Of a stretch of 64,000 nt of DNA, positions 8,400-48,565 are shown piece by piece. This DNA is from Takakia lepidozioides (Eukaryota > Plantae > Bryophyta): positions 56,606,001 to 56,670,000 of the forward strand of contig CM060731.1 in assembly GCA_030704615.1 (NCBI GenBank), written 5' to 3'. Position numbers and translations under genes: made by a program. The notes under the pieces are model-generated. The model was not told the DNA's origin and did not search any database. It saw only the letters and a program-made list of their open reading frames with translations. Positions within the stretch are counted from its first letter, which is position 1. Every line of letters starts with the position of its first letter.

Positions 8400-8454
8400 C
8401 TCATTCTGGTGTCTGATCCAGAATGGTCAAACCGCCTTACGATGTCTTGCCTGA

Positions 8455-10356: not shown

Positions 10357-10377
10357 GTCCCATATCTTTCATTTCTT

Positions 10378-29759: not shown

Positions 29760-31925
29760 AGGAAGTGAGGGGAGAATAAGCCTCCCTTGGCTTATATCCC
29801 CCCCCCCTCCTCATTCCTCGGGCCACGTGCAGGGCGAATCTTCTAGAAGCGGCCGCCAACTTGGCGGTCGCTCCATTTTCCGGAAAATAAAAAAATAAGC
29901 GACCGCCAGAACCGGCGGTCGCTTCATTTTCCGGGGAAAAAAAAAGAAGCGACCGCCAGAACAGACGGTCGCTCCATTTTCCGGAAATAAAATAAATAAG
30001 CGACAGCCAACATAGGCGGTCGCTTCATTTTTAAAACATTTAAAATAAATAAGCGACCGCCAACATAGGCGGTCGCTTCAATTTCAAAACATTTTAAATA
30101 AATAAGCGACCGCCAACATAGGCGATCACTTTATTTTCAAAAAAATTAAAAATTAAAGTGACCGCCAATAATGGCGGTCACTTGATTTTCAAAACAATTA
30201 AAATAAAAGCGGCCGCCAGTCATGGCGGTCGCTTGATTTTCAAAAACATTTAAATAAAAGCGACCGTCAGTAATGGCGGTCGCTCCATTTCCAACCAAAT
30301 TCTTAAAAAAGCGACCGCCATTAATGGCGGTCGCTTCACTTACAAAAAACAACAATATTGGCGACTGCCCCTAATGGCGGTCGCTCCATTTTCCTCCAAG
30401 GAACAAAAAAGCGACCGCTAGTAACGGCGGTCGCTTCATTTCCAAAATAATTAAAATAAAAGCGACAGCCAGTAATGGCGGTCCTTTCATTTCCAAAATA
30501 ATTAAAATAAAATCGACTGCCAGTAATGGCGGTCGCTTCACTTCCAAAATAATTAAAATAAAAGCGACCGCTAGTAATGGCGGTCGCCCCATTTCCAAAA
30601 ATAAAAAAAATAAAAGCGACCGCCAGAAATGGCGGTCGCTGAATTTTGTAAAAACAAAAACTGCCAGTAATGGAAGTGAGGGGAGAACGACTGGGGGCTT
30701 ATATGCCCCCCCCCCCCCCCCCCCCCCTCATTCCTCGCTCCACGCGCGGGGCAGACATCGTAGAAGCGACCGCCATCATGGAGGTCGCTCCATTTAAAAG
30801 CAAAAAAAAACGACCGCCACAAATGGCGGTCGCTCCATTTCGCCCAGAAAAAGAAAAAAACTATCGCCAGTAATGGCGGTCGTTGCATTTATAAAAACAA
30901 AAAAAAACTTCAAGCGACCGGAAGTGAGGGGAGAATGTGCCGGAGCTTATATGCCCCCCTCCCCATGCCTCACTCCTCGCTCCATGCGCAGGGCACATTT
31001 CGTAGAAGCGACCGGCACCTTGGCGGTCATTCCATTTTCATTTTCAAAACAATTAAAATAAAAGCGACCGCCATAAATGGCGGTCGCTCCATTTCCAACC
31101 AAATTTCAATAAAAACGACCGCCACTAATGACGGTCGCTGCAATTACAAAAAACAACAATACCGGCGACCGCCCCTAATGGCGGTCGCTCCATTTTGCTC
31201 CAAAAAAACAAAAAAACCGACCGCCAGTAACGGCGGTCGCTTCATTTCCAAAATAATTAAAATAAAAGCGACCGCCAGTAATGGTGGTCGCTTCATTTTT
31301 CTAAAATAATTAAAATAAAAGCTACTGCCAGTAATGGCGGTCGCTTCATTTCCAAAATAATTAAAATAAAAGCGACCGCCAGTAATGGCGGTCGCTGCAT
31401 TTATAAAAACAAAAAAAAACTTCAAGGGACTGGAAGTGAGGGGAGAATGTGCTGGAGCTTACATGCCCCCTTCCCCCGCCTCACTCCTCGCTCCATGCGC
31501 AGGGCACACTTCGTAGAAACGACCGCCACCTTGGCGGTTGCTCCATTTTTATTTTCAAAACAATTAAAATAAAAGCGACCGCCATAAATGGCGGTCGCTC
31601 CATTTCCAACCAAATTTCAATAAAAGCGACCACCACTAATGGCGGTCGCTGCAATTACAAAAAACAACAATACCGGCGACCGCCCCTAATGGCGGTCGCT
31701 CCATTTTGCTCCAAAAAAAAAAAAAAAAAAACCACCAGTAACGGCGGTCGCTTCATTTCCAAAATAATTAAAATAAAAGCGACCGCCAATAATGGCGGTC
31801 GCCCCATTTCCAAAATAATTAAATTAAAAGCGACCGCCATGTATATCCCTCCCCCCCCCCTCATTCATCGTTCCATGCGCAGGGCAGACCTCGTAGAAGC
31901 GACTACCACCTTTGCGGTCGCTCCA
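29760..31925. repeat. Array of GCGACCGCC-N5/6-GGCGGTCGC palindromes with A/T-rich spacers and ~510-bp higher-order units
   Basis: Dozens of copies. The punctuating motif GGAAGTGAGGGGAGAA..poly-C occurs at ~29761, 30672, 30920 and 31431. Confidence 0.95.
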
Positions 31926-32803
31926 TTTAAATAAAAATGAATGCACAGTTGGAAGCATGGCACAATTGTTCTCCATTCCACAAGCAAATCACCGAACACA
32001 AACATGAGCAAGTGACGGTGCCTTTGGCCGACATTTTGGCTGGTATACACATGGGCAACATCTTTTATTTTCCAACACATACACAACAACAATACAAATA
32101 CTCATAGTGACAATGATCACATTGGTATTACTTCAGTACAGAAATATAAACATGTCCACTAAAAAGTACTGATGCATGCCTATAGCTGTTTTGCTTCAAT
32201 TTTTTCTACTGCTTTGACGGTGGGACGAAGAAGATCCTAATCCTAATGCTCCGATGGGTTGAAAATCCGGGTTACCCTCGACTTCACCACCGTTGCCATG
32301 ATCAGTATTGGAATTGTCCTCCCTATCCGACCTCATATGTCCAGGCTTTTGAATCTGCAAGCGACCTCAAACCACATTTAGTTCTCTCTGAGGTCGACTC
32401 CCACTCCGGTCTTGAATACCATCCACGGTATCTGGCCTGTTTGTGGGCCGATCGTCTACAAAAGGTTGGACTGTTCTCTGTCGTTTATGGACTTGGGACG
32501 CAATCGAAGGTGGTCTCGAAGGAGGTACCGGAGGGGGGACTGCCCGAGATGGACCGGCATTAGATGGTCCGGCATGTGAGGAACCACGGGTCTGCTGCGC
32601 AACACGTCGGTTAATGTAGAATTGTAGGTTGTCATCATCCGAGGCTTCAACTTCCGCCCTGTCCAATGCAGCAGAATGATGCATGCGTGTGGAAAATAGA
32701 TCAACCATGTTGCTCCTTAATGCCCGTTGTGTTGATGGGGAGCTGGATCGGTTTTGGCATTGTGGTGGAGCTGGTCGTATCGGTGAGGCATGATCCCGTC
32801 CTG

Positions 32804-35200
32804 TCAACTGTACAATGGGTTCGACACCATCGTTTGTATGAACAAGGTTGCGTACGTCGATCGGTCATGGTAGTACATCACTCCTAAGCTCCATTGGGGC
32901 ACTCCCGGTGGCTTCAGCATGTAATGGGGGGCGAGGGTCGACCCCAACTTCATTTTGAGGACCATGTTCTGGGATGACTCAATTGCAGCTTCACCTTCAT
33001 CTGCGATACGCACTTCTTCAAGAAGGTCATCAAAGGTCGGCTGGATATAAGCATCCTCCTCTGTGAATGTAAACGAGTCATACACATTTTCGAGAGCATC
33101 ATTGGATCTATCTTCACTATCGGAGGCAGATGATTCCCTCTGAGATAATTCTATCTGAGGCTCAGTATCGTCACTCATCGAATCAGCCTCAGAAGCAGAG
33201 TCTTCGGAATGCAAATTCATTTCATACCATGCTGCAGCATCGTCCGCTGCCCTCTCACGTAGCAGTCGGCAATTGGTATACACATACACCAATTTGTCAA
33301 CCCTCGCGGGATTCAATTTATTGCGAATCTTGTTGTGAACAAATGAGTAACTGCTCCAATTGCGTTCGCAAGATGAGGCAAAGCACACTTGAGCAAGAAT
33401 ACGCTTCGCAATGGGAGCCAATGTTTTTGCTCCAGCTCCAATCAGATCCCACCATTCATGTGGCAACATATTGAGCTCTTTGGGATCCGGCATGTCCTCA
33501 AAAGGGTCGCGGCGATATGAGAAACATTGGTACTCGGATATAGCTCTCTCTACATGGTTCGGCGGAGCCAGTCGCATGAGCACTCGCACGAGGCTGGTCT
33601 TGGCATCAACGTCGTCTCGGAGCATGGTATTGTCGAGCAAGAATGGATTGAGCAAAGCCCCCGCATAATGCAAGTCCGTTCGAACCATCGAACGACGATC
33701 GTAAAATGCATCCTCAACACTGTCCGCAAGTTCAGGTTCTAAGGAGAAGGGAGGATGCCTCAAGGATTGGACGTGCTTCTCAAGATTTTGCATTAGTAAC
33801 CATGCCTTGCCCATTACTGGTTGATTTCCATCAAACTCCTGCAAGACGATTAACACTGGCTCTACCATATAAACAAAATTTTCACATTTCTTCAAAAAAT
33901 CATCGTTGCGAATGTTATTTCGAACTTTTCGACTTTTGCCCAATGACTTGGCTTTTCTGGAGTCCCGCAATGTCCGTGTGTACGCATCCCATTGAGGATC
34001 AATGATGGTGTGCTCCAGACTGCTCTTCACCGTCACCAACCGATCCACCAAGAAGTTAGTGACAAAACGAGTTTCGTTTGGATTGCGGAGACTGTATTTG
34101 GGTTCGTGCCTCCTATATATTGCCAAAGGGATGTGGTGTGTGCAGATGTACGACACAACAGTCTTCGCTCACTTGACAAGTTGTTTCACCCACTGTTCTT
34201 TTCCCCAATCTTCCAAAATGAGGTCAAGGATATGAGCAGCACAACCTTGATAGTACATGTGGGGATAACGTACCAACAACATGTCTGCAGTGTTTCTCAT
34301 GTTAGCGGCATTGTCTATGCATATTTGCATGATTCTATCACTTCCAATCTATTCGATGAAGTCCGTCAATAGTTGACATTGATAACGTCCATCTTTCTTC
34401 TTGCCGCTAGTGTCGACCGATCCCAAGAATTGTTCCCCAACTGGACATACGAGCATGACATTGAACAACGGTCTGTTTGTGACAGAACTCCAACCATCGG
34501 CACATATAGTGCTTCCATATTTTCTGATGCACTCGCCCGTCCTATCGTTGACCTTTTGGGTAAGCTCGGTCATGACGTCTTCTAGCAATCCTGTGTGGAG
34601 ATTGTGATAAGTCGGAGGCACGTACGTGGATCTGGACTTCGAGATTGCTCTAACGGCAGAAACAAATGCCGGAAGCCTTGCCACATTAAATGGTATGTTG
34701 GCCTTGAAGAGAAACTGCGCCAATTTTTTATCCAACTGTCTTTTCGCAGACAAGTTAAGACCTTCTTGCACGGATTGCTGCCGTAATCCTCTACTCCGTT
34801 GAAGTGTAGAGGTACAAAGAGGTGTTGAAGTAGGTGTTGCTCCGGCACAACCCACTTGTCTAGGGACACCCGAAGCCTCACAAGAGTCGCCTTGGGTACT
34901 AATCGGGGCATCCTGACAGGAAGATGGAGTGTTCTACTCAGAGGTCATGTCCAGATCCAAAGACATTGGAATATTGCCTCCACACTGGGCAAAGTGGTTT
35001 TTTACCCGCATAGATATTTTGGGGCATAAACCCACCCTAGCGCTCTTCACACCTTTATAGCCGAGGTGAGCGAGCAACCGATCCTTACGATAAGAAAGCT
35101 TTAATCCACATAGGTTGCATTCAACACTACCAATGGCACTGACAGTGTTCGGGATTGTCGTATACCAAGGGCTCCATTCCTCCATATCATCTTCACCCAA
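32804..35200 (-). pseudogene. hAT-superfamily transposase (DUF659 type) with BED-like finger
   Basis: CNLC..RLLAHL; ANIPFN; ICADGWS..NRPLFN; IDNAANM; GCAAHILDL; PNETRF; WW..G..LA..A.RILAQ..SSCERNWS. Several in-frame stops. Confidence 0.9.
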
Positions 35201-35502
35201 TATCCACTCCCCTGGGACCTAGCGATGCAAGCAACAAAAAACAGTCACCTATAAATAAACGTGTTATGAATGTAGAGTGCAATGCGATAGCCCAATACTT
35301 CTACACCTGTCAGCAACCCAAGTGGGTCGATGTGGGTTGTAGTGTTGAGCTTATACACAATCTGCTGAAGTGGCTTTGGTGGAAGCCACAACGGCAAAAG
35401 GTGCGCACCCTCCTCTTGGGCTACACGCTCGTTCAATGGAAGAGAACATCCAAAGCAACCTCAAGTGTTTGCGCCAAAAGAAGTGAGGAGCTTGGTGACC
35501 CT

Positions 35503-35828
35503 TGTCAAGTTATTTTACCACTAGTGTGAAACTAGCTAAAAATAACTAGCTTTTACATATTGACATTTGGGATTGGCCCAAGTGTCAATCTAGGGGTCAA
35601 GGCAGATTTAGGCCCTGGAGTGGTTATCTTCACGGCAAGCGCGGGAGGCTCATCTTTTTCGAGTTGAGCCTCACCGCGCCTAGCTATGGCGCCGTAGTGT
35701 GGATTCCCCATGGCGTGGGGTGCACTTGGCTTGACTTGTATTTGAGTGATGAGGTTATATATGCATGAATTTATGCTTCAGCTTTGTGAGTTCGCATGAG
35801 CTTGTGTTTGTATTCTTCTTCTTTATCA
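35503..35828 (+). repeat. Terminal repeat A1 (3' part of LTR)
   Basis: Near-identical to 46539-46864 (about ten differences by eye); ends TTTATCA. Confidence 0.95.
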
Positions 35829-35844
35829 CTCGAAAAAGATGAGC
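35829..35844 (+). promoter_or_regulatory. Putative self-priming primer-binding site
   Basis: CTCGAAAAAGATGAGC directly after the LTR-end CA is the exact reverse complement of 35648-35663 within the LTR. No tRNA-type TGG PBS is present. Confidence 0.75.
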
Positions 35845-36509
35845 TCGTATTTGTGAGTGCCAGATACGAGTTAGTTGTAGCACTTGTGGTTTTTGCTTGA
35901 GAATGAGAGAAACCAAGTTGTTATGCAAGGAGCACCGTGGAGCTCTTGGTTGTTAGAAGCGGAGGCGATGTGGGTTACGAGGTGGTAGACCTTGGCATTC
36001 GATCTTCAGCTTCAGAGATGAAAGCACCATGCTGCAGGTAATTCCAGAGCTTCTTGATGGTTTCAGATTGTGTACATGCATGAGCAAGCACGATTGGAAG
36101 AGGACCAGTCAAGAGCAAGTTATAGTGGCTTTGGTGGCAAAGCTGAGAACTGGACTTGGGAATGCGAGCTTTCATTGTGTGAAGGATTGCAAGACCAAGC
36201 GAAAGGGCTGATTTGGCTTGGGGCAAATCAGTGCACTTTGTGGAGTATGGTGAGATTGGGTTTCAATCTCAAGCTTCAGCATTCAGAGGGCTCTTGTCAT
36301 GGCAAGAGCAGGGCTGGAACAGGAGCTAAGAGGTGCGGCAAGGCCATGGAATGTGCACCTAGGGTTTCAGAGCTTGGAAGAAGAGCTCTTGCACCACAAG
36401 AGAAGTGTCTTGTGGCTGGAAATGTAAGCCTTAGGGTTTCAGGAGCTTGGCAAAGGCTGTGGAGTGCTTAGTCTTGTCTTAGAGAGCATCAAGGAGCCAA
36501 TGAGCCAAG

Positions 36510-36960
36510 ATAGGGGGCTGATACCTCTTGTGTGAAGGGGTTGCATGTGTGGAGCATGTATTCAGCTCATTGAAGCTTCCATCTTCAAGCTTGGAGGGCA
36601 AGCAGGGAAGAGGGAAGGGCTGACTTCCCTTATGTGAGAGCAATGCATGTGTGGAGCATGCTTTCAGCCTGTTGAAGGCTTGTACTTTCAGGTTTGGGAG
36701 TGCAAGAAAGGAAGGAAGGGGCTAGATCCCTGTAGGGCATGTGTGGAGCATGCTTCCAGCCCGCTGAAGAGTGTATTTTCAGGTTGGTGGGTGCAAGAAA
36801 GAAAGCAAAGGGGCTGATTCTCTGGTGGTGAGAGTGGGGCATGTGTGGAGCATGCCTTCAGTCCATTGGGCTTTTGTTTTCAAGCTTTAGAGAACTAGAA
36901 GAGAAGGTAAGGGGCTGATGTGCTCTTATGTGACAGTCCGACACTTGTAGAGCGTGTTCT
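36510..36960. repeat. ~100-bp degenerate tandem repeat (GCATGTGTGGAGCATG core), ~4.5 copies, in the 5' UTR of gypsy #2
   Basis: Core at ~36543, 36645, 36737, 36839. Confidence 0.8.
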
Positions 36961-37354
36961 GAGTTGGGGTTTCAACCTCAAGCCTAGATAGAGCATGGCT
37001 CTTGAAGTGGCAGGTGTAGGGGGCTGGAATAGGCTCTAAGACAGATGCTATGGCCAAGGGAAACGCTTGAATGAGTGCTCACAAGGGCTGGAAACCAGCA
37101 AGGCTTGGTTGTTTGCCATTGAGTTTAGTGGCGTGTTTGGGGAGTCTAAGTGAGAAAGAAGGCTTGGTTTGTGGCAACCGTCTTCCTCATGGCTTAGGGC
37201 TACTATTGGTGGTGTGTGGGAGCCGAAAGAGCAAGAATACCTTGCTGATTTCTTCACAGCCGCCATAGCTCGGTGCAAAGAAGCCTAGAGTCCAAGAGAC
37301 ACAAACCCTAGTTTGGCGTGGCTAAACCCCTTGGAGAAATGGCTAAACTGTCAT

Positions 37355-38015
37355 GAGTGGCCTGTGGGGCTGTGGTGGGCTGTGCCCTGTGGCCTGTGGG
37401 GCTGTGACGGGCTGTGACACGCTGTGATGGGCTGTGAGGGGCTGTGGCAGGCTGTGACAGGCTGTGCCCAGTGGCCTGTGGGGCTGTGACGGGCTGTGAG
37501 GGGCTGTCACGGGCTGCGCCGGTGGCCTTCGGGGCTGTCACGGGCTGTCAGGGGCTGTGACAGGCTGTGCCTGTGGCCTTTGGGGCAGTGATGGGCTGTG
37601 ACAGGCTATGCCGGTGGCCTTTGGGGCTGTGATGGGCTGTGAGGGGCTATGACAGGCTGTGCCGGTGGCCTTTGGGGCTGTGATGGGCCGTGAGGGGCTG
37701 TGACAGGCTGTGCCGATGGCCTTTGGGGCTGTGACGGGCTGTGAGGGGCTGTGACAGGCTGTGCCGTGGCCTTTGGGGCTGTGACAGGCTGTGCCGATGG
37801 CCTTTGGGGCTGTGATGGGCTGTGACAAGCTGTGCCCGTGGCCTTTGGGGCTGTGACGGGCTGTGAGGGGCTGTGACAGGCTGTGCCCGTGGCCTTTGGG
37901 GCTGTGATGGGCTGTGAGGGGCTGTGACAAGCTGTGCCCGTGGCCTTTGGGGCTGTGACAGGCTGTGCCTGTGGCCTTTGGGGCTGGGGCCTATGTGGGG
38001 CTGTGACGGCTGTGA
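37355..38015. repeat. GGCTGTGAC/GGCCTTTGGGGCTGTG minisatellite in the 5' UTR of gypsy #2
   Basis: Directly visible 10-bp-based tandem units. Confidence 0.95.
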
Positions 38016-38754
38016 CCAGTGCTTTGTGTAGGCCTGGACTGGTCTGTGGTGGCCCGTGTTGACCTGTGGAGGGCCAGTGCTGACTCGTGGAGGCACTGGT
38101 GGATTGCCTAAGGACTGGCATGTGGTCTTGAAGGCCGAATTTTTGACGCTCGTGGAGGGCGGTTCGAGGAATATCTTCATGATATTCCCATGGTTATGCA
38201 AGTGAAGGAAGAGAGGAGATGAAGAGTGTTGGGATGAGAGCATGCCGGGGTTAGGCATTGCTTTAGCTTCTCTTCCTCGTAGTTTCCACCCTCTCATTAG
38301 GCCAAGACCTTTCCGTAGGTGGAGGCAAGAGTCAGTCCGGGTTTGGGCTGGGGTGTCCTTGCAGGAGCAACACCGTGGAGTTGTTTTTGGTGTGAGGGAG
38401 TTGTCGTTCTGATTTCTTGTGTTTGCATCCCCTCCATACCTACATGTTTGACTGTGCGCCATGCTAGTTTTGTGTGGGCGCTTGTTTTTATAGGTGATTG
38501 GTCCGGATTTGATCACCGGCCAGTCCTAGAGCATGCTGTCGATGGTGAGGCTGGGGTGATGACCAGCCAGACCATCATTGTTTCTCCTATGGTGAGGTTG
38601 GAGGTGATGACCAGCCAACCATAGGAGTGCTTGCGGTGGATGCAGGTACAGGTGTAGGCTATGTTAGGAACTTAGTATTCCAAACCATAAGCCGCAACAG
38701 GTTCGCTACCCGGTTACCTTGTGGAGAGGGGGTTAGGGACATGTTCATGACCGG

Positions 38755-40200
38755 TTGAGTGTCAATAAGGAGGTGCCACTAGTTGCTGGGGACAGTGCCG
38801 GTTCAAGCACTAGCGATACTAGTGGGTACACGAGACAAGGTGTGCGGTTTAGGCCATCTTCACCTCCTGTGTCTTCTACGAAAGGTTCTGATTCGGATTG
38901 TGAATCAGGAGGACTCATACCGGCGGTGCAAGTTGTTTCTTTGCCATTGTTGTGGGACATAATGGAGGAGATGTACGGAGCTACCAAGGGGCCACGAAGG
39001 TACTCTGGGGCGGTGGGCACCATCGAGTTGGATGATTTTATCCAAGAGTTTGATAGTTGGTGTGATTTGCAGCAAATGCGCAATCCACAACTATTTACAC
39101 ATTTCATGGCATGAAAAGGGCTGTTTCAACACCTTGAGGGGCCGCCTATGGATGATTACCATGAGTTCAGGCGGGGGCATGAGGTTGAGATCGAGGAGTG
39201 GAGGATGTACAGGTCACCCAACTATGTCTCCATCACTAGGGGCACTAGAGCCACGAGGGCAGTGGCTACACGTGCCGCTGCACCGGCAGCTTCAGCAAGT
39301 AGCAGTGGGACTAGTGGGACTGGTGGTACAGTAGCTACGACGCCCACCCAAGCCACTACCGCACCAGCACTAGTACCCGTGCCTGCCTTCAACCCTGTTG
39401 TGGAGTTCTTCGAAGAGTTGAGAGGGAACTAACAAGGGATGAGGACAGAGAAGTTGTGGAGCTTGCAAGAGTTCCAACGGAAGCCGACCGAGAGCTTGAG
39501 GGAGGCTTTCACTCGCATGAGGCGCTTGATAAACGTAACCCAAGGGATTACAGAAGCTCAGGCAGTCCAATTCTGGTATGGGATATTGGACAAGGAGCTG
39601 AGGAGAAGGGTGCGGGATGCAACTCTCCTACAAGCGGCCCAACCCACCTTAGCAAATGTGTTTTTTGCTGGCAGAACGGATAGAGCTCAACACGAGTGGT
39701 CATGGTGGATTTGCTAAGGAGGCACCACGGGGTAGTGGTGCTCCTAGCCAACCACTATCTCAACGTGCTCAAGGCAACAAGGGGGCTCAGGTGAAGCTTA
39801 GGGAAGGGCAGAGAGGACCTCAGATGCAGGGGTCTCTCCCTTCATTTGCTGGCCAACAACGGGCAGATGTGGTGTGCTGGACATGTGGAGGACCCCATGT
39901 CAAGAAGGATTGCCCAGAGGGAGGCAAAGGGCCGGCACATGCACAGCCTGCACAGTTGCAGTGTGGGCATTGTGGAAAGCACGGGCATGGAGAGGCCCAG
40001 TGTTATGGTTTGCATCCTGAGTTGCGCCCAGGCCAGTTCCAAGGGAAAAATGGTAGCCGGGGCGAGGTGGAGCAGCCCAGAGAGGACAGGTGTGGCCAGC
40101 CACGAGGTGCAGGCTAAGGGCAAGCTCAACATGGCCAAGGACGCGGAGGTCAGGGTTGTGACCAAGGCATGGCCAACCGGCTTCAGCAGCTAGAGCAGAG
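38755..40200 (+). pseudogene. gag: Gag with two zinc knuckles (stops/frameshifts)
   Basis: LQEFQRKPTESLREAFTRM..FWYGIL; CWTCGGPHVKKDC; CGHCGKHGHGEAQC. Confidence 0.8.
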
Positions 40201-40766
40201 GCTCGCTGCCATGGCTACAGCTCAGGTGTACCGGCTCTAAGGCCGGATGGTTCACCTCCTGCTCCTGAGGGAGAAGATATGGGAGGCATGGGATTCATGT
40301 GTGGAGCAGCACTACCACTAGTGCAGGTGGATCTGCTGCAGCCGTGACTCGAGGAGCAGCACGATTTCCTGAGCCACGAGGTGCAGAGGTGGAGTTGGAT
40401 CCACAGCGTGGGGAGGCAAGCCGTCAGGCTAGGCTTCCTCAGTCATTCACATTGGCGGAGACAGTGTCGACGCCATCCATGGCCCTAGTTCTCGCCCGAC
40501 TGTTACCGAGGCGGAGGTTACTATGCCATTGGGAGAGCTACACGGGTAGCACCACTACTAGTGTTGCCAAGGCTACGACAGCTAGTGTGCTACTAGGAAC
40601 GGCCACATCTGTGTGCCAGTCCCATTGTCTCGGCTATCATGATTGCAACGCCGGGGGTACGACCAGCTGAGGTGTTCAGCTGGCAGCTATATTCTGTGAG
40701 AGTGGGGGGATGTTACTCCCTTCTGCGGAGATAGTGGGAGGTTAGTGTCCAGAGGGATCCTCGGAT

Positions 40767-41317
40767 TTGAGGGTCAAGACTGCCACGGCGGCGCCATGGC
40801 AAGCTGCAGCTGCCAGGTTGATGGAGCTGCCAGCTAGAGGCCAGCCATTGAGCGCCATGGTGACACCTGGAGTTGTTATGTTAGACAACCAGGATGACAT
40901 TTTCTGTTTGAGTGGACTGGCAGGCAAGAGGTACCGGCCACTGCGGGTCTTGTTGGACTCGGGAGCTCAGCCATTGATGCTGGGCGAGCTGCTATTGCAG
41001 GCTTGGGCCTCACGGAGGCGGATATGGAGCCTTGTCATTTCCAGATACAGACGTCTCTGGGAGGATCGGAGCAGGCTCGGGGCATGACACGGCGTGAGTT
41101 GGCTATCAGACTACGGCCGGATCACCCTACAGATGGCTCAGTGATGCGAGCCAAAGCCATTGTGACAGACACGGTCTCATACGATGTCCTGGTTGGTAGG
41201 GCTGTGTTGTACCCCATGGGCTTCACCCTGGATTTTTGGGAGGAGTCAGCTTCATATAGGCCTGCATCGCAGTCAGGGGAGGGCCGGCGTGTGCAGCTCC
41301 CTGTGACGTTCATATGA
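40767..41317 (+). pseudogene. Retroviral-type aspartic protease
   Basis: VLLDSGAQP and YDVLVGRAVL motifs; one frameshift. Confidence 0.8.
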
Positions 41318-41422
41318 GGAGTTGCGGTTGCCCAGCGAGGCAAGATACCGACACTAGCAGCATTCACAGCGGCAGTAAGTTGGCCTAGAGAGCTGCTTGA
41401 GGGCAACGTTCATTCAGAGGAT

Positions 41423-42697
41423 GTGCCACCTCCGGGAGAGCAGGATGACATGTATGGTATGGCGGAGTTGCCTACCATGGTTGCTCAGACTCCATTGTGG
41501 GGCACGAGCAAGGATTTGCAACGGGATGCTGATCGACGGGTGCAACAAGCCTGGGTAGAGGCTTTTGTACCGTCAGGAGAGGAGGAGAGTGCGGGGATTG
41601 CACCAGGACCACCTCAGTTGTCTCTATTGGACACCACACCTATTGTGTGGCAGTATCCGAATGAAGACATTTGTCTTCTAGACTTGTTTGGCGGGATCAG
41701 CACCGGATTGGCTGCAGTGTTACAGGCAGGTGTACGAGTTTGACGTAACCTATATGTGGAGAGGGATGAGACTGCACGACGCGTTTCACTTTGCCATGTT
41801 GCTCAGTTGGTGCAGCGGTACCCTAAGTTGTTGTCGGTGTCTGCAATTCGTGGATATCAGCAGGCCTTGCCAACAGACATTTCGTTTCTGGGGGCGCAGG
41901 ATTTGGAGCGGGTTGGCTCCATTGATCTGGTAGTGGCAGGTTGGCCCTGCCAAGGGCATTCATCAGCCGGGCATGACAATGGATTGCGGGACTCGAGGTC
42001 GGGTCTGTTTTGGGAGATGGTGCGGGTTTTGCGCCACTTGCAGCTTCATCAAGCTGTATCTCCAGCATACATCTTGGAGAATGTGCCACTGATGGGCGAT
42101 TCTTTGGCCAGGGTGATGGCCAGTGTGCATCAAGTCCGGTCGTGGCTTGGGTTAGCAGTGTTGCTAGATGCAGCTACAGTGGGGTCACATCGTCCACGGC
42201 TATGGTGGACTAACTTGATGCCACCCGCACTGCTCAAGCGTGCATTTGATGGGGTGCAGCAGCCAGCACATCTCACAGTGGATAGCATTCTGGACACAGG
42301 GAGGCAGTCTCAGCGTGTGAGACACGATGACCGTTCGCCTTTGGCAGTGGTCAACAAGGTGGGTCAACCACGAGCAGCATTACCAACACTGCTCAGCTTC
42401 CCAGGATTGCATGTTTTCCGGGATAATGGACCTAGCCTCCTGTGGGATGCTCAGTTGCAGCAATTAGTGGAGCCTAATGCTGACGAGCGTGAGCGGGCAA
42501 TGGGTTTACCACTGGTACCAGTGTCGTCTCTTTCTGAGGCATCACGTCGTCAAGTGTTGGGGGCAATGGATCTCAATTGCTTGACCTGGATTATCAGCTT
42601 GGCTATGGCTGAGCAACGCAGAGTGCGGAGTACACTTCCCTCGATGGTCTCTCTGCCTACCGAGACGGTACAGGCAGTGAGTGGGGCGAGCATGTGA
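41423..42697 (+). pseudogene. DNMT3-like DNA (cytosine-5) methyltransferase domain within the retrotransposon polyprotein
   Basis: Motif I LLDLFGGI, II YVERD, IV DLVVAGWPCQGHS, SGLFWEMVRVL, VI ILENV, VIII RPRLWWTNL, IX ERERAMGLP, X RRQVLG. ORFs 41003, 41423 and 41756 share one frame broken by two TGA codons. Confidence 0.92.
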
Positions 42698-43139
42698 GGA
42701 CCACGGGGTGCAGGCATCCATGGCACACGTGGGAGATGCTCGAGGTTCAGAGGGAGTTGGCAGCCAAGGTGGCGATGAAAGATGAGGTTGGGGATTTTTC
42801 TCGGGTGGAGGAAGTCCTTGAGGATGAGATGATGGGGCAGGATGAGGCCTTGTCATTGACTGAGCAGGTAGGGAGTACTGCTCAAGAGGTTGCAACATAG
42901 CAACCACTGGACGCGTCCTCTACCTCTAAGCCCACTGGACTTAAGGTTGCAGTTACGGAGGACAATTGGGAGCCTGACATTGGACCCATTGTCACCGGAG
43001 GAGAGAGCGACGTATATACGGCGGCGGTTCCTGAGGGCTTATAGGAATTGCTTTGCTCTTCAGTTTGAAGGACTTGGAGAGCACTGAAGCGGTCCAGAGA
43101 TCCGTATTGAGCTGGCCACTGACATGCCAATCTTTCGGA

Positions 43140-44460
43140 GACCCTAGAGATACAGTGACATGGAGAGGTTTTTGATTTAGATAAGGACTCAAGATCTCTG
43201 GGAGGCAAGTTGGGTGGTGGAGCTTCTAGTGCGAGAGTATGCTTCAGCCACAGTGATGCCAGCCAAGAAGGAGTGTCTATGGCAATTGAGAGAGAGAGAG
43301 ACAATGAACGATAGTGCGGTGTGATATAATTACCGGCCTGTTGTTGTACAATCGTAGACCAAGTCCGATAGTTGCCATGCCAACACTTGAGAAGATCTTG
43401 ATTGCCATCGGGCATCATGCTAAGGTCTTTGCACTTTGGATTTACGATCCGGATATCACCACTTGCCAATCAAGGAGGCGGACAAGCGAAGAAGACGCAT
43501 TCTGGGGGATAAATGAGCACGACAAGGATTGCCTTTTATATAAGTGGCGGTTCTTACCATTTGGGCTTAGAATGCTCCTGCAGAGTTCAGAGAGTCATGG
43601 ATAGGATTCTAGCAGGGGTGGACTTTGCTCGGTGCTACATAGATGACATCATCATCTTAGTGTACGATGGAGGAGCATGAAAAGACACCTTTAGGTGGTA
43701 TTGGAGCGCTTTTGAGAGCGCACGGATTGAAGTTGCATCCGGGGAAGTGCAAGTTTTTCACACCAGATTGAGTATCTGGGTCACATGAGATATCCTGGGA
43801 TTATGGGGGTACAGCAGAGCTAAGGTAGAGGCCATTGCACAAATTCCACGGCCCCACGGATGTGAGCCGAGTTCGAGCTTTCATGGGGTTGGCAAAAATT
43901 ATAGACGGTTTGTCAAGGGATTTAGTACCATTGCAAAGGCTGTAACCAAGCTGACCAGTGGACCAGGAGTGGCCAGTGGGAAGATGAGAGTAAGACGCTT
44001 TAGTGCCATGCAGTGGCAGAGAGATCAAGAAAGAACGAGCTTTGCTCAAGGCCGAGGTTGACCTCGGCGCCTATCCTGAGACGACCTATCAGGGGGCGTC
44101 CCTTTCAGCTGGCATACGGATTGGAGCATTGGGGGCTTGGAGCGGTGCTCCAACAGGTGGATGATGCGGGAAGAGAGTTCGTAGTGGCTTATGTTAGCCG
44201 CTCGAAAACGCTGCAGAGGTAAGTACAGCTCATATGAGGGAGAGTGCTTAGCTGCAGATGTGGCCGTAGCACACTTCAGGTGCTATCTATACGGCAATCT
44301 TTTCACCCTTGTCACGGATCACCAACCACTCAAGTGGTTGATGGAGTCAGACAAGCTTACGGGGAAGCGTGGCACGGTGGGCACTCCGGAGTATGACTTT
44401 CAGGATTGTGCATCGACCGGGTTTGGGAAATCGGGATGCGGATGGATTTGAGTCGCAATC
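43140..44460 (+). pseudogene. Reverse transcriptase and RNase H (heavily frameshifted)
   Basis: FALWIY.SGYH, WRFLPFGL, TAC ATA GAT GAC (YIDD) at 43636-43647, LHPGKC, VRAFMGL; GLGAVL.Q, YSSYEGECLA, VTDHQPLKWL. Confidence 0.85.
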
Positions 44461-44594
44461 CATGCATGAGCCAGCAGGATGACACTGGAACTCGGTGGCA
44501 TGGTGAGACGGACGAGGAGATGGTGCCGGGATGGCACGCATCTGCATTTTTGTGTATCTTGGCATCGGGAGGTTAGGTTGGACCTACAATAGGG

Positions 44595-45752
44595 ATGACT
44601 GTAGACGGAGTGTCTGAGGACCCTGAGGCTAGTGATGACCCAGGTGGTGCCAGAGATATACATGAGGATTCGGCTGTGTTGGACTACCTCCGCACGGGAG
44701 ACACGGCAGCCACTGTGACTACCAGGGAGAGGGATCGGATCCTGCAACGAGCCAAGAGGTTCAAATGGGAGGGGATACACCTACTTCGAGTGTGGGAGGA
44801 TGGTCGGGTGAGGATTGTGCCTCACCCCACACAGCGTGCACGGTTCGTGCGGCATGCCCATGAGGAGTTGGGGCATTTTGGAGTGCGACGCACTCACAGT
44901 TTACTGCAAGGGCAGTATTGGTGGCGTGGTATGCATATAGAGGTGCAACAGTTCGTGGCTAGGTGCATGGTGTGTGACAGGGTGCGTGCTTCATTCAACA
45001 CCCCTACACCACAGTTGCATCTTTTACCAATCATGGGATTGGGCTACAGGTGGAGTCTTGACTTCGCAGGACCGTTGCCACTGGCTATGCGCCACCACAG
45101 ATATGTGTTGGTGATGGTGGAGCACTTCTCCAAGTGGATTGAGTTGGTTCCATTGCCTGATAAGGCTAGTGAGGGGGCTACGTATGCATTCTTGGATCGT
45201 GTACTTAGCCGATTTGGTGCTCCAGCTGAGGTACTCACGGACCAAGGGAGAGAGTTCTTGGGGGAGTTTCAGGCTTTGTGTGATAAAGCCTTGATAGACC
45301 ACCGCACCACTTCTCGGGATCATCCTGAGGCCGATGGCTTAGCAGAGAGAGTTGTTCAGACGGTGAAGAGGGGTTTGCGCAAGTATGGCTTGCAGAAGGG
45401 ACACCTAGGAGATTGGGATCTTCAGGTTTTTTGGTTAGCCATGGGCTACAGGTTCAGCAAACAAGCATCGCTTGCCTCATTCTCACCATACTTCCTTCTC
45501 TTTGGCCGAGAGCCGGATTTGCCTGCAGCCATTCGTAGGGACTTTGTTCAAGTCCTTAACCTTGACGATCCGGACGTGTGGGTACGTGCATGTGATCAGC
45601 GTGCAGAGTTGTTCAAGAAAGTCATGCCCATGGCTTTTGAGAACCTTGCCATTGCACAGCACCGTGATACGTTGAGGTATGCCACTATACGTGGTGGAGG
45701 ATATCGTCCTGGGGTTTGGAGGTTTAGCCCTGGTGACTATATTTATTTGTAG
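44595..45752 (+). CDS. DDE integrase
   Basis: HEELGHFG..CMVC zinc domain; WSLDFAGP, TDQGREF, DGLAER; SPYFLLFG. Confidence 0.93.
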   Translation: MTVDGVSEDPEASDDPGGARDIHEDSAVLDYLRTGDTAATVTTRERDRILQRAKRFKWEGIHLLRVWEDGRVRIVPHPTQRARFVRHAHEELGHFGVRRTHSLLQGQYWWRGMHIEVQQFVARCMVCDRVRASFNTPTPQLHLLPIMGLGYRWSLDFAGPLPLAMRHHRYVLVMVEHFSKWIELVPLPDKASEGATYAFLDRVLSRFGAPAEVLTDQGREFLGEFQALCDKALIDHRTTSRDHPEADGLAERVVQTVKRGLRKYGLQKGHLGDWDLQVFWLAMGYRFSKQASLASFSPYFLLFGREPDLPAAIRRDFVQVLNLDDPDVWVRACDQRAELFKKVMPMAFENLAIAQHRDTLRYATIRGGGYRPGVWRFSPGDYIYL

Positions 45753-45837
45753 CAGACTGTTCCTACGACTCTAGATGTTACTGCAGGGCGTGTTATTCTG
45801 AGGGTTCGAGAGGTGTTGCCCTCAGGGATGGCATGAC

Positions 45838-46155
45838 TTGGAGGGTCGGGATGGCATGACTTGGAAGGACCATGTGCGTAATTGTGTGCCATGTCACCTT
45901 CCCAATGTCGATGGCAGAGTTGACCCAAACTTGGCAGTAGTACCTGCAGGTTTGAGGTGCATGCTCTGTGGGTCTGCCAAAGGGGCAGCCACCATGCTGG
46001 TGTGTGATCGATGCTCAAGGGGTTGGCATATGGGATGCTTGACACCACCTCTGAAAAGGTTCCTGACGGAGATTGGTTGTGTCCACACTGCTTGGGATAG
46101 TGGCAGTGGACATGACTGGAGGCAGCTAACAAGACATGGGAGGCCAAGCTCATAG
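45838..46155 (+). pseudogene. Integrase C-terminus with PHD finger
   Basis: CMLCGSAKGAATMLVCDRCSRGWHMGCLTPPL followed by a frameshifted W.C..C (GAT TGG TTG TGT CCA CAC TGC): C4HC3 pattern. Confidence 0.85.
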
Positions 46156-46349
46156 GAGTCAATACATGAGATCCCAAGCTCAAGTTCACAGGTTGCAAGA
46201 CGGCGATTAACGATGGGGCAACTCTTGCACCCGACCTCTTGATCTATCGAGTTTGAGTGTAGTAGGGATAGTGGTGGAGGACTTAGTGAGGCTATGGTCA
46301 CTATCACATCTTGTGGCTACCTAGACTTAGAGGGACCTAAGCACCAGCT

Positions 46350-46356
46350 AGGGGGG
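46350..46356 (+). promoter_or_regulatory. Polypurine tract
   Basis: AGGGGGG immediately before TGAT at 46357. Confidence 0.55.
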
Positions 46357-46864
46357 TGATTGTGTGGACTAGTGACTGCCATAGTGGGCAGCATAGTGGC
46401 AGCCTAATGACTGACTAGTTGTAGCCTAGTGGTTGGACTAGTGGTGGACTAGTGGTATACTAGTGTGTGGTGTGCACATGTGTTGTGTGGTTTTGGACAG
46501 CGATGTAGTTGTGTAGCGATATGTATGCGCACGACAGCTGTCAATTATTTTACCACTAGTGTGAAACTAGCTAGGAAATAGCTAGCTTTTACATATTGAC
46601 ATTTGGGATTGGCCCAAGTGTCAATCTAGGGGTCAAGGCAGATTTAGGCCCTGGAGTGGTTATCTTCACGGCAAGCGCGGGAGGCTCATCTTTTTCGAGT
46701 TGAGCCTCACCGTGCCTAGCTATGGCGCCGTAGTGTGGATTCCCCATGGCGTGGGGTGCACTTGGCTTGACTTGTATTTGAGTGATGAGGTTATATATGC
46801 ATTAGTTTATGCTTCAGCTTTGTGAGTTCGCATGAGCTTGTGTTTGTATTCTTCTTATTTATCG
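46357..46864 (+). repeat. Complete LTR (B1 46357-46536, GC, A2 46539-46864)
   Basis: Begins TGAT after the PPT and ends ATC(G) (ATCA in A1). Central junction is the palindrome GACAGCTGTC (46533-46542). Confidence 0.85.
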
Positions 46865-47040
46865 TGACTGCCATAGTGGGCAGCATAGTGGCAGCCTAGT
46901 GACTGACTAGTTGTAGCCTAGTGGTTGGACTAGTGGCTGGACTAGTGGTAGACTAACGGTATACTAGTGTGTGGTGTGCACATGTGTTGTGTGGTTTTGG
47001 ACAGCGATGTAGTTGTGTAGCGATATGTATGCGCACGAAA
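46864..47040 (+). repeat. Terminal repeat B2 (5' part of LTR, relocated to the 3' end)
   Basis: Copy of 46372-46536 with a ~12-bp indel; lacks the first ~15 bp of the LTR. Confidence 0.93.
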
Positions 47041-47164
47041 CCCTTCTCCCTTATATATGATCCAAGATGGATGAAAGTGAAATGAAAGTGAAATGAATAA
47101 ATGACGAACCAATAGCGTCCACTCGAAAAAGGTTGTACAACCATGTTTGTTGTAATTTTGAAAT

Positions 47165-48565
47165 TAAATGACCGCTAATACTACGGTCGCTATTTTTATT
47201 TTTTATGAAAAACAAACGACCGCCACTACTGCGATCGCTTTTATTTCCTTTCATTTTGTGCAATATTGCGGTCACTTCTATTTTGTATATTTTTAAATTT
47301 AAGCGACCGCCCGTATGGCGGTCGCTATTGTTTTTTATTTCAAAAATATAATGCCGGTATGGCGGTCGCTTCATTTGTTAATATATTTAAAATAAAGCGA
47401 CCGCCAATATGGTGGTCGCTTTTATTTTTAATATTTAAAAAAAAAACGCGACCGCCAGTAAGGCGGTCGCTTTTAATCTTTATATTTTCAAGTTTAAGCG
47501 ACCTCCAGGGTGGCGGTCGCTTAAACTTAATATATATTTTAAAATTGACGCGACCGCCGGTTTGGTGGTCGTAAATATTGTATTGTTTTAAAACAAGCGA
47601 CCACCGGTGTGGCGGTCGCTTTTATTTTCATATGTCGCTTGTTTTGTTTTTATATAATTTGAAATTTACCGACCGCCATATGGCGGTCATTTGTTTTTCT
47701 ATATATTTTTTAAATTAAGCCACCACCCAATGGCGGTCGCTGTTTTATTTTATTTTATTTTTTTGAAATTATATCCGACCGCCATATGGCGGTCGCTTGT
47801 TCTATACATATTTACAAAATTGTGCGACCGCCAATACAGCAATTGCTTGTTTTAAAAAAAAAATTAGGCGACCGCCAAGATAACGGTTGCTATTTCTTTT
47901 TTTAATTCGAAAAATAAGGCGACTGCCAATCTTGCTTTTTTTTCAAGAGAATTTGATGCGACCGCCAATATGGCGGTCGCTATTTCTTTTTCTATTTCAA
48001 AAAATAAAACGACCGCCAGTGCGACCGCCAATCTTGCTTTAAAAAACAAAAATTGAAACGACCGCCAATACGGCGGTCGCTATTTCTTTTTTTTAATTTC
48101 GAAAAACAAAGCGACCGGCATAATTGGCGGTCGCGTTCATTTTGTTAATTTTCAAAAATTTATTTGCCACCGTGCGACCGCCAATACGGCAGTCGCTTGT
48201 TTTTTTTTTAAAATTAGGCGACCGCCAAATTTTTTTTAAAAAAAATTAAATTGAAGCGACCGCCAACATAGCGGTCGCTATTTGTTTTTTTAATTCGAAA
48301 AATAAAGCGACCGCCAGTGCGACCGCCAATCTTGCTTTTAAAAAAAAAACATTTGAAGCGACCGCCAATATGGCGGTTGCTATTTTTTTTTCTATTTCGA
48401 AAAATAAAGCGACCGCCAGTGCGACTGCCAATCTTGGTTAAAAATAAATAAAAGTTGAAGCAACCGCCAATAGGGCGGTCGCTATTTCTTTTTTAATTTC
48501 GAAAAACAAAGCAAATTGACGGTCGTGTTCATTTCGTTAATTTTCAAAATGTATTTGCCACCGCT
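47165..48565. repeat. Second GCGACCGCC-N-GGCGGTCGC palindrome array (upstream of the hAT transposase once gypsy #2 is removed)
   Basis: Same core as 29760-31925. Confidence 0.93.

Follow-up and report, generated by a model that had tools for sequence, protein, structure and literature searches.

KnitGypsy-Dnmt3, described from Klebsormidium nitens, combines the domains of a Ty3/gypsy retrotransposon with a non-permuted DNMT3-like methyltransferase (DNMT) domain under purifying selection; the Fig. 4 legend of that report also gives it DIRS-like split repeats (PMC5890265). The same combination is seen in the family of an element located in the window considered here (the whole stretch of 64,000 nucleotides from Takakia lepidozioides, contig CM060731.1, positions 56,606,001 to 56,670,000; coordinates below count from its first letter). 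Kinship with the Klebsormidium element, proposed in the first-pass annotation of this DNA, was borne out: K. nitens KFL_009030040 has the same PR-DNMT-RT-RH-IN order, with 41% identity over 249 residues, and groups with the window's relatives in both the DNMT and the RT tree. From its domains we infer that this protein is one of the KnitGypsy-Dnmt3 copies of PMC5890265. The Gypsy-DNMT3 kind is already known from Klebsormidium; judged by sequence, the window family is a variant of it, set apart by a DNMT that ends ORF1 and by the stop that follows. In KnitGypsy-Dnmt3 the DNMT shares one ORF with RT, whereas in the window family it ends ORF1 before a leaky-type stop; also, close relatives of the window family are annotated in liverworts and Sphagnum. 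The accessible part of PMC5890265 contains no account of target duplication, self-primer, polypurine tract, palindrome, PHD finger or repeat mechanism.

Several other systems share part of this design. The DNMT3 family (human DNMT3A/3B; Physcomitrium DNMT3b, PMC6453930) provides the closest solved fold and sequence, with linear motif order I-X; the window DNMT is about 20% identical to it, is encoded by an element, and has neither PWWP nor ADD domain, none being found in the element by Pfam. Tf1/Sushi and Tcn1 elements, like the window element, have a primer site pairing with the 5′ repeat rather than with a tRNA, a polypurine tract, and a DDE integrase with a C-terminal chromatin reader (PMC6317226); the window element differs by a PHD finger in place of the chromodomain, by the added DNMT and by insertion ends lying inside the LTR. 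The comparison with chromoviruses (Tcn1, Chlamyvir) concerns the integrase C-terminus, which has a PHD instead of a chromodomain. The words ‘PHD’, ‘methyltransferase’ and ‘Marchantia’ are absent from the accessible main text of the REXdb survey (PMC6317226). EpiLTRs and DAM-LTRs are also LTR elements with a methyltransferase and a chromatin reader; their DNMT, however, is described as sister to DNMT4 and distinct from streptophyte Gypsy-DNMT3, and they carry a chromodomain and DAM, unlike the window element (bioRxiv 10.64898/2026.05.21.726589).

The repeats of the window element are split, in the order A...B-A-B, with TG..CA ends and a DDE integrase. PAT, Ngaro and TOC1 are split-direct-repeat retrotransposons using a tyrosine recombinase. 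They and SymbioDIRS-Dnmt3 (PMC5890265) share with the window element the order A...B-A-B and an internal joint copying both ends; they differ in their tyrosine recombinase, where the window element encodes a DDE integrase and shows TG..CA ends with a 4-bp target duplication. Membership in DIRS/PAT/Ngaro was rejected on account of the rve and H2C2 integrase, the lack of a recombinase in the element ORFs scanned, and the 4-bp duplication.

Structure of the element

The window copy is a dead 11.5-kb Ty3/gypsy element (35503-47040) from a very abundant family. Its assignment to Ty3/gypsy in the first-pass annotation agrees with the domain order Gag-PR-RT-RH-IN with DDE integrase, as required of such LTR retrotransposons, and with the primer site, polypurine tract, TG..CA ends and target-site duplication. 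All parts lie on the forward strand, the duplications and the palindrome described below being strandless. A 3.1-kb leader (35845-38961) has tandem repeats at about 36514-36936 and 37354-38016. It is followed by gag with CCHC knuckles (38962-40222; tblastn), disrupted by stops and one frameshift and 63% identical to Marchantia Mp4g09160 across the first 226 residues of the latter (tblastn). The aspartic protease (40818-41302; LLDSG at 40950) is frameshifted; in intact relatives it matches PF13650.

Downstream of the DNMT are reverse transcriptase (YIDD at 43636) and RNase H (43109-44400), with many frameshifts, and a DDE integrase with an H2C2 zinc finger (44577-45749), still a 391-aa open frame (PF17921, E 3e-15; PF00665, E 6e-14). 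A PHD finger at the integrase C-terminus (45928-46094; PF00628, E 7e-7) has a frameshift near its end; the PHD of an intact relative is closest to those of CHD4, PHF12, PHF21A, KDM5 and UHRF1. No host gene was seen among the scanned window ORFs of 130 codons or more, and no RNA dataset matching the element was among the matches listed.

The methyltransferase domain

The reading frame through 41003-42697 opens at 40898 and has exactly two TGA breaks, at 41315-41317 in the linker before the DNMT domain and at 41741-41743 inside it. The DNMT had been placed in frame with the protease C-terminus, and one frame with two TGA codons does hold the C-terminal half of the protease and the DNMT; the protease, however, is frameshifted and its catalytic DSG is read in a different frame. 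The domain (41645-42622) has motif I at 41687, PC at 41945 and ENV at 42077, as well as HRPRLWWTNL and ERAMG. The full, intact motif set reported for this copy is a property of the family, where it is complete and non-permuted; the window copy itself has lost three short stretches without a change of frame, and one of these losses affects motif X. Of 24 aligned proteins, all keep the catalytic P, E and N together with the second R of motif VIII and the residues of motif IX; the catalytic C occurs in 23, the remaining one having a gap. Among distant relatives compared by motif, EC replaces PC with ENV kept in 4 of 10, a fifth has EC without an ENV match, and the Klebsormidium protein has EHV.

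The PF00145 check that had been proposed gave a score of 48.3 bits (E 1.3e-12), well over the Pfam gathering threshold of 22. The best PDB sequence matches were DNMT3A (E 2.5e-7), DNMT3B (3e-5), M.HhaI (4e-4) and Arabidopsis DRM2 (0.07). With the predicted structure (pLDDT 77.7, pTM 0.81), Foldseek returned solely DNMT3A/B/C among the best 50 ranks listed. VIA-align of the model with DNMT3B gave Z 21.6 (rmsd 3.3, 272 aligned), compared with Z 20.9 for DNMT3A, 19.4 for M.MpeI, 17.5 for M.HhaI, 15.9 for DNMT1, 14.7 for ZMET2 and 13.7 for MET1; the lead of the DNMT3 fold over M.MpeI is just 2.2 Z units. Identity with DRM was rejected, as the motifs run linearly from I to X and are not circularly permuted. 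On these sequence and fold comparisons, which side with the earlier preference for DNMT3 over permuted DRM, the window domain is a non-permuted, DNMT3-like C5-methyltransferase, whose activity is predicted.

The stop behind ORF1

The first-pass annotation had described the DNMT as part of the polyprotein, directly upstream of RT. The adjacency is only rough, and in this clade the DNMT, instead of belonging to a continuous Pol, closes ORF1 (Gag-protease-DNMT), with RT lying beyond a conserved stop that is probably leaky. Between the two lie the ORF1 C-terminal tail of ∼275 nt (42623-42897), with one frameshift in the window copy and an RHPW motif common to Marchantia ORF1 tails, and the stop at 42898-42900 in a TMV-type readthrough context, TAG CAA CCA (42898-42906), in frame with the start of pol. 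In the intact loci L022 and L031 an ORF free of stops reaches this codon and a 1047-codon ORF2 continues in the same frame.

The context motif was found on site in 28 of 35 dereplicated related loci (30 before removal of the off-site matches in L024 and L071), compared with 0/29 in the single-ORF sister family. Full CARYYA is present in five of the 28 (the window and four divergent loci); the other 23 have TAR-CAA-CCY. The seven loci without the on-site motif comprise three with a stop and an altered next codon, one with a sense codon and three without the region. Among 719 contigs of run X1, no variant of at least 1% was listed at 42896-42907, while 42894, 42895, 42908 and 42918 vary. A conserved RNA stem 3′ of the stop was looked for and not found (z -0.9, -1.0, -0.5, -2.7). 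CAR-YYA is the TMV signal, giving about 10% readthrough in plants, where UAA leaks too (PMC2754532); in the window element it is a methyltransferase, and not just Gag, that precedes the stop.

The conserved stop behind the DNMT is likely to be leaky and read through occasionally. Quite probably, UAG-CAR-YYA readthrough would yield mostly Gag-PR-DNMT, extended into RT-RH-IN-PHD in a minor part of the product; since the DNMT ends ORF1 before a readthrough-type stop, the enzyme is predicted at Gag levels. Alternatively, the stop is a real one and pol has a start of its own, by termination-reinitiation, a spliced RNA or an internal promoter. The main moss-metagenome subfamily has an in-frame ATG 6 nt past the stop, with CAA-CCC as context, and as this largest subfamily combines TAR-CAA-CCC, not full CARYYA, with that ATG, reinitiation is possible there. 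No ATG is present at this place in the window family or in L020, L022, L026, L031 and L035, nor is there a Met from the stop to the RT core in L022, L026 and L031; moreover, the frame and CAR-YY are kept across lineages with DNMTs only 46-47% identical to the window's. We consider a separate pol start rather improbable and prefer readthrough.

Terminal repeats and integration

The earlier description of the element missed its split terminal repeats. A canonical LTR pair, two full direct LTRs bounded by primer site and polypurine tract, was rejected for this reason. The left end is repeat A1 (35503-35828), which starts with TGTCA, the left end also in relatives by sequence comparison. On the right are B1 (46359-46536), terminating in CGACA; A2 (46539-46863), 97.5% identical to A1 (six mismatches, two gap columns); and B2 (46864-47040), the right end, which differs from B1 by two mismatches and one 12-nt indel and has one substitution in GACA. 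A polypurine tract (46350-46356) lies directly 5′ of B1, a position kept in both families. At the B1/A2 joint the palindrome GACA-GC-TGTC (46533-46542) abuts right-end and left-end attachment sites with a 2-nt spacer; the motif recurs at this joint in 11 other loci. Such B-A-B 3′ ends were seen in 10 distinct copies from three sequence families.

The element is flanked by CCCT (35499-35502 and 47041-47044). Of the copies with both ends placed (L080 and L002, with ends that could not be placed, are excluded), 7/9 have a perfect 4-bp target duplication; a 5-bp duplication was rejected, with 0/9 perfect.

A tRNA primer site was also rejected: the primer-binding site (35828-35844), of self-priming type, is complementary to a stretch of A1. 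This predicted self-primer (35648-35664), the putative 5′ end of the transcript, forms a perfect 17-nt pairing, compared with a best of 9 nt in 200 control windows (fold z -6.4). The self-primer beats all 40 controls in 17 of 22 copies, and pairing is preserved in each of three different sequence sets.

Private alleles common to the two repeats of one copy number 33 over 13 pairs, against 18 over 42 pairs and 16 over 42 pairs for sharing between copies (pair numbers counted by hand). Because private alleles are shared within copies, both repeats look rebuilt at each insertion; alternatively, gene conversion could have produced the sharing. The A/B joint is exact or nearly so in most copies and variable otherwise: it is 13 nt short in the window copy, about 150 nt short in L060, and contains 9 nt of the primer site in L023. 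In L027 the start of B is joined to a truncated RT without polypurine tract, and one run X1 contig joins an A end to a full B start at 46359. Since B2 is without the first ∼13 nt of B1, the A2/B2 joint looks like an imprecise end-join.

Very probably, ordinary LTR reverse transcription, self-primed as in Tf1 and with B+A as the LTR, would give a linear BA-internal-BA DNA. On balance we favor a further step, in which the ends would be joined (the A2/B2 joint) and integrase would open the 5′ LTR at its palindrome, cutting in a staggered manner behind each CA. Such a cut would give processed ends directly and insert A-internal-B-A-B; the element thus likely inserts from a DNA circle opened within the LTR. 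To our knowledge, a circle as integration substrate is not an accepted route for retroviruses and LTR elements. Foamy-virus integrase cuts palindromic circle junctions, and the attachment joint has the same geometry there (PMC1180852); in the window element, however, the palindrome lies within the LTR as a templated sequence, and the true A/B end joint is no attachment site.

If a 2-LTR circle were cut without bias, the mirror form A-B-A-internal-B would be expected too, while none of 24 distinct 5′ ends has B upstream of A1; the circle-cut step therefore needs an unexplained bias. Seven loci end in B-GACA-flank without A2-B2; any one of three events, namely a 1-LTR circle, a double cut and subsequent recombination of B1 with B2, would account for them. 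The split repeats might instead be rebuilt in the PAT/Ngaro style, with a transcript into B2 and the internal B-A joint templating both ends, and integrase acting on linear A-internal-B-A-B without an end-joined circle. This route has the repeat order of split-repeat YR elements (PMC5890265, Fig. 4 legend) and yields only A...B-A-B, in agreement with the missing mirror forms. It leaves unexplained, though, why the polypurine tract is exactly at the start of B and the primer site exactly at the end of A, and why the A/B joint has variable deletions and primer remnants; also, no recombinase was seen among the element ORFs scanned, and the ends have a target duplication and TG..CA. We regard PAT/Ngaro-style rebuilding as unlikely.

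Family, spread and selection

We found 55 homologues, and of 600 pattern matches 308 were related stretches; the breadth given here is that seen in three word-based searches. Relatives are present in Marchantia, Calypogeia, Sphagnum, Closterium and chlorophytes; in run X1, 81,878 contigs leave none of the element's 30 bins uncovered, those of the DNMT among them. Full-length Gag-PR-DNMT genes are annotated in Marchantia polymorpha (Mp4g09160, MpVg00370, MpVg00540, Mp5g06330, Mp5g06860). The methyltransferases seen in viral contigs (30 loci) were all of phage type, 27-43% identical across portions of the domain; relatives of the Pol proteins were not found there. A literature search covering few subscription papers returned no paper on land-plant copies, the post-DNMT stop or the split-repeat mechanism.

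Among the listed DNMT proteins longer than 900 aa, 36 of 76 end 71-141 residues past the DNMT. The ORF1-ending type forms one clade (support 97, quick tree). In sister lineages the DNMT lies inside Pol, and in chlorophyte types between RNase H and integrase; a single-ORF arrangement, DNMT with RT and RNase H, occurs in the sister family L041-L077 and in P0313. DNMT and RT trees (FastTree) were broadly congruent; the DNMT trees had phage methyltransferases as sole outgroup.

Intact copies, which the first-pass annotation had proposed to seek, were found: dN/dS of the DNMT is 0.11-0.14 among L022, L026 and L031, and 0.09 for the pair L044-L042, compared with 0.3-0.75 for young decayed copies. 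By these ratios the domain is under purifying selection between intact copies. Relatives without the DNMT, neutral evolution and a missing PF00145 match had been named as grounds against the original reading; none of the three was observed, the DNMT being present family-wide.

Possible role of the enzyme

Our main reading, to which we give a probability of roughly 0.58, is that of a Gypsy-Dnmt3 copy with a DNMT packaged at Gag level, a leaky stop, self-methylation, and a circle intermediate opened at the LTR palindrome. Its functional steps are less firm. There is an even chance that the abundant DNMT would methylate cDNA or circular DNA, with CG as the probable context; a new copy would then arrive pre-marked and be handed over to host maintenance methylation. 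Equally balanced is the proposal that the PHD would direct the complex towards chromatin whose H3K4 is unmethylated, as ADD does in animal DNMT3. CpG depletion at neutral sites did not help to detect self-methylation: the element's loss (0.43, 0.25) is no stronger than that of a neighbouring Ty3 element without a DNMT match (0.37, 0.16).

The absence of extra CpG loss would also suit a DNMT that, produced in Gag amounts and freed by the protease, acts mainly in trans, on host chromatin, on other copies, or damping the element for the host's benefit. The peer-review file of PMC5890265 contains the argument that fusion to RT forces action in cis; this argument is weakened here, because a DNMT lying in ORF1 ahead of a leaky stop would be made in large excess over RT. 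A trans-acting good is under weak selection when its carrier is selfish, at odds with the dN/dS of about 0.13; in Klebsormidium the methylome is ordinary (PMC5890265), and the positions within Pol, or between RNase H and integrase, in other lineages also speak against trans action, which we consider improbable. Even less probably, the DNMT might be retained for DNA binding or for a structural role in the particle or integration complex, with catalysis incidental. The EC and EHV variants of distant relatives would fit such a role, as would the Klebsormidium domain, which showed no methylation in yeast; its authors called that result inconclusive, and human DNMT3B failed in the same assay (PMC5890265). 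In the clade of the window, moreover, SAM-binding and catalytic residues are nearly invariant. Finally, the heavy decay of the window copy might suggest that a host gene was captured a single time or that the DNMT is an artefact of assembly, in either case without a function for the element; this is refuted, and its probability negligible, given dozens of related loci with the same order, existing intact ORFs, purifying selection and broadly congruent RT and DNMT trees.

One could speculate beyond self-methylation that integration from an end-joined circle is obligate, as in copy-out/paste-in transposons of IS3/IS30 type, and that the element's own methyltransferase chooses the opening site, DNMT and integrase forming a restriction-modification-like pair. 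Methylation of the strong-stop duplex would then leave a mark at the conserved CG of ACGACA in both identical palindromes, though not on the same strand, so that the 3′ palindrome would be shielded and the 5′ one open to integrase. We find this quite doubtful; if true, it would explain the retention of the DNMT, its Gag-level supply and the 0/24 mirror insertions.

Implications

Why retrotransposons carry cytosine methyltransferases has been a question since 2018, and the previously known hosts, dinoflagellates and Klebsormidium, are hard to work with. As full-length Gag-PR-DNMT genes are annotated in M. polymorpha, the question becomes testable in a genetic model. With the repeats split and ORF1 annotated as a host gene, LTR finders and counts of bryophyte DNMT genes likely mis-handle these elements. 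The predicted leaky stop shifts the expected stoichiometry to one enzyme per Gag, not per RT, and the terminal anatomy makes the family a testable case of a DDE retroelement that may normally integrate from a circle.

The methyltransferase domain and its family

The reading frame in which the first-pass annotation had placed a DNMT3-like enzyme, within the decayed Ty3/gypsy retrotransposon at 35503-47040, is real: it runs for 599 residues from 40898 with stops read as X, and contains two TGA codons (41315-41317 and 41741-41743). A search with PF00145 located a C5 cytosine methyltransferase (DNMT) at 41645-42622 (48.3 bits; cut-off 22) with its motifs in linear order; the catalytic residues are almost invariant among 24 aligned proteins. 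The best sequence match among solved structures was DNMT3A (E 2.5e-7), with DNMT3B, M.HhaI and Arabidopsis DRM2 behind it. For a structure model with pLDDT 77.7 (built on 24 sequences), Foldseek had DNMT3A/B/C alone among the top ranks listed, and a Foldseek-free structure search gave Z scores of 21.6 for DNMT3B, 20.9 for DNMT3A, 19.4 for M.MpeI, 17.5 for M.HhaI, 15.9 for DNMT1 and 13.7 for MET1. As DNMT3A and DNMT3B lead in all three comparisons, the label ‘DNMT3-like’ is a fair one, resting on matches to solved enzymes. Besides the two TGA stops the window copy has three small deletions in its DNMT, and there are frameshifts in gag, protease, the tail of ORF1 (Gag-protease-DNMT), reverse transcriptase (RT), RNase H (RH) and the PHD finger; the window copy is dead.

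The domain search retained 55 longer proteins out of 7,994 candidates; top matches were from Calypogeia fissa (71%), many Marchantia genes (57-71%) and Sphagnum, chlorophyte proteins being more distant. An RT-RNase H search added relatives in Closterium and Klebsormidium nitens (KFL_009030040); the latter has the order protease (PR)-DNMT-RT-RH-integrase (IN) and 41% identity to the window's DNMT domain. KnitGypsy-Dnmt3 is of the same kind (PMC5890265). Of the 15 Marchantia members listed for cluster 3, four map to the V (male) chromosome, and full-length ORF1 is present in two of the four. A metagenome scan produced 308 related stretches from 600 pattern matches; among the best 80 of the 308, which were retrieved, nearly all sufficiently long loci show the order PR-DNMT-RT-RH-IN-PHD. 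A single sequencing run of the source organism contributed 81,878 contigs, which together covered 30 of 30 bins of the element. The DNMT is therefore part of a very abundant family; the alternative of a one-off capture is ruled out by this coverage of all bins, those of the DNMT included.

When three intact loci were compared with one another, dN/dS of the DNMT was 0.11-0.14; for the window against moss-type copies it was 0.08-0.09 (with dS near saturation), and among many decayed young copies it rose to 0.3-0.75. In trees made by quick and FastTree methods only, the element DNMTs formed one clade against phage enzymes, DNMT and RT trees were broadly congruent, and the window grouped, at support 99, with sequences from liverworts and moss metagenomes, so its host is probably a bryophyte. 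Some proteins of chlorophyte type, Chromochloris included (P0040-P0050, P0203, P0213, P0292, P0302, P0321, P0328), carry a homologous DNMT between RNase H and integrase; they make a single clade in both the DNMT and the RT tree, which suggests that the domain was relocated once within the polyprotein.

A stop codon between the DNMT and RT

In the intact metagenome loci L022 and L031, the DNMT ORF ends at a single stop, after which a 1047-codon ORF for RT-RH-IN-PHD continues in the same frame. The earlier picture of the DNMT as a domain of a continuous Pol was not borne out in this clade, given this conserved separation. In the window the stop (42898-42900) reads TAG CAA CCA. Dereplication of 81 loci left 68; among the 35 window-type loci with enough linker, TAR-CAR-YY was on site in 28, the stop was kept with the next codon changed in three, a sense codon stood in one and the region was absent from three. 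The sister family L041-L077, assigned by identity, had the motif in none of 29 loci. For contigs of run X1 (n=719, the window's family), no variant of at least 1% was listed over 42896-42907, while flanking positions were variable. The related CAR-YYA is the readthrough signal of TMV, allowing ∼10% readthrough in plants, and UAA is leaky too (PMC2754532).

We consider it probable, at roughly 0.8, that the stop after the DNMT is read through. Several observations count against this: the final A of CAR-YYA is present in only five of the 28 motif-bearing loci, in the main subfamily the context is CAA CCC and an in-frame ATG comes after it, and a search 3′ of the stop found no conserved RNA stem. 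The ATG is absent from the window family and from L022, L026 and L031. Among the DNMT proteins listed, 36 of the 76 longer than 900 residues terminate 71-141 residues past the DNMT, five full-length Marchantia genes of one cluster among them. With a leaky stop, the DNMT would be co-produced with every Gag, at a level far exceeding RT and integrase.

Terminal repeats and integration

A canonical LTR pair was ruled out: the repeats are split, in the order A...B-A-B, with A at 35503-35828 and 46539-46863 and B at 46359-46536 and 46864-47040. The B-A-B 3′ end was seen in 10 distinct copies from three sequence families. The element is bounded by TGTCA on the left and GACA on the right, and a 4-bp duplication flanks seven of nine copies with both ends placeable (three of four bases in one, none in another). 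The B1|A2 joint, GACA-NN-TGTC, amounts to two attachment sites abutted two bases apart. A polypurine tract lies immediately 5′ of B1, and the stretch directly after A1 is complementary to a mid-A site, over 17 nt in the case of the window (fold z −6.4). This self-complementary primer site exceeds all controls in 17 of 22 copies, its pairing being kept by three different sequence sets; Tf1/Sushi and Tcn1 share this self-priming design (PMC6317226). The sister family, with 34-40% DNMT identity to the window and from the same metagenomes, lacks a conserved stop behind its DNMT; its ends are nevertheless of the same build, from the split repeats and the palindrome to the self-primer and the 4-bp duplication.

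Since polypurine tract and primer site bound the unit B+A, this is judged to be the functional LTR, and reverse transcription would be expected to yield linear BA-internal-BA, of which the inserted form is a circular permutation. The A2|B2 joint, mostly exact, 13 nt short in the window and ∼150 nt short in L060, appears to behave like an end-join. At L023:5531-5819 a remnant of the primer site abuts the B start, and at L027:7305-7417 a truncated RT does so, the polypurine tract being absent from both; these look like aberrant end-joining products. Private alleles are shared ∼6x more per pair within one copy's repeats than between repeats of different copies.

In the route we somewhat favour, the ends of the reverse transcript would be joined into a circle at A2|B2, and staggered cutting of the palindrome behind each of its CA steps would give processed ends directly. 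Foamy-virus integrase is reported to act on circle junctions in a comparable way (PMC1180852); for KnitGypsy-Dnmt3, the 2018 paper remarks only on DIRS-like repeats in its Fig. 4 legend (PMC5890265). A 2-LTR circle contains two identical palindromes, and if cutting had no bias, A-internal-B-A-B and its mirror form A-B-A-internal-B would be expected at equal frequency; the mirror form, with B before A1, was found in none of 24 distinct 5′ ends, which does not fit. Moreover, seven loci end with B1 directly on the flank (duplication verified in one, L020); any of three routes would produce this form, namely a 1-LTR circle, cutting of both palindromes or subsequent B1-B2 recombination. Because of these two observations we favour insertion through a circle only somewhat, and a YR-like template route in its place, though unlikely, keeps some weight. 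As the circle route needs an asymmetry between identical palindromes, and a conserved CG precedes the palindrome (ACGACA in the families seen), one may speculate, at long odds, that strand-specific methylation by the element's own DNMT selects the joint to be cut.

Other features of the window

A short remnant of a related DNMT start (motif I region; 52487-52570, + strand), with 64% identity to Marchantia Mp4g09160 across 28 residues, lies just past another Ty3 element. A fragment of a related gag at 23960-24262 (− strand) has 78% DNA identity to 39784-40085 and is therefore the relic of another, diverged member of the family. A hAT transposase (32804-34930, − strand; DUF659, Dimer_Tnp_hAT) is flanked by arrays built from a ∼51-nt unit whose inverted core is CGACCGCC/GGCGGTCG (29798-31943); the arrays resume at 47147-48554, directly past the right end of the retrotransposon, which may therefore have inserted into a hAT-bearing DNA element. 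Each unit of a 116-nt-unit array (16041-17080) has a long palindrome whose 41-50-nt arms reach 98% complementarity at most. A 447-aa intronless ORF (27141-28481, − strand) near 120-nt tandem repeats carries a RING-like zinc finger that scores under the Pfam cut-off and is possibly mobile-element cargo. At 11475-14689 (−) and 17745-19815 (+), several ORFs of 250-395 aa that have no Pfam match give the impression of a fragmented transposase-type gene.

Function and novelty

Our best reading is that the DNMT, predicted to be abundant and packaged, would methylate the element's new DNA in cis, so that the copy would arrive pre-marked. Neutral CpG depletion in the element showed no sign of self-methylation; the control was a better-preserved Ty3/gypsy element at 3320-10368 (− strand; gag, protease and a 1302-aa RT-RH-IN ORF), which has no DNMT match and which the RT tree places apart from the DNMT/PHD clade. 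The nearest counterparts of the integrase PHD are the PHDs of CHD4, PHF12, PHF21A, KDM5 and UHRF1. Such PHDs read unmethylated H3K4, as does the DNMT3 ADD domain. The Klebsormidium DNMT domain was negative for methylation in yeast (PMC5890265). As host context, moss DNMT3b methylates heterochromatin de novo at CG and CHH sites (PMC6453930).

A Gypsy element carrying DNMT3 is already known, being cited for ‘streptophytes’ in PMC12344493 and bioRxiv 2026.05.21.726589. Our literature search, limited in coverage and supplements, returned nothing on land-plant copies, the stop or the mechanism of the ends. What appears to go beyond the known DNMT-Gypsy elements is the predicted placement of the DNMT at Gag level, the combination of circle-type ends and a DDE integrase, and the presence in Marchantia of full-length ORF1 genes.
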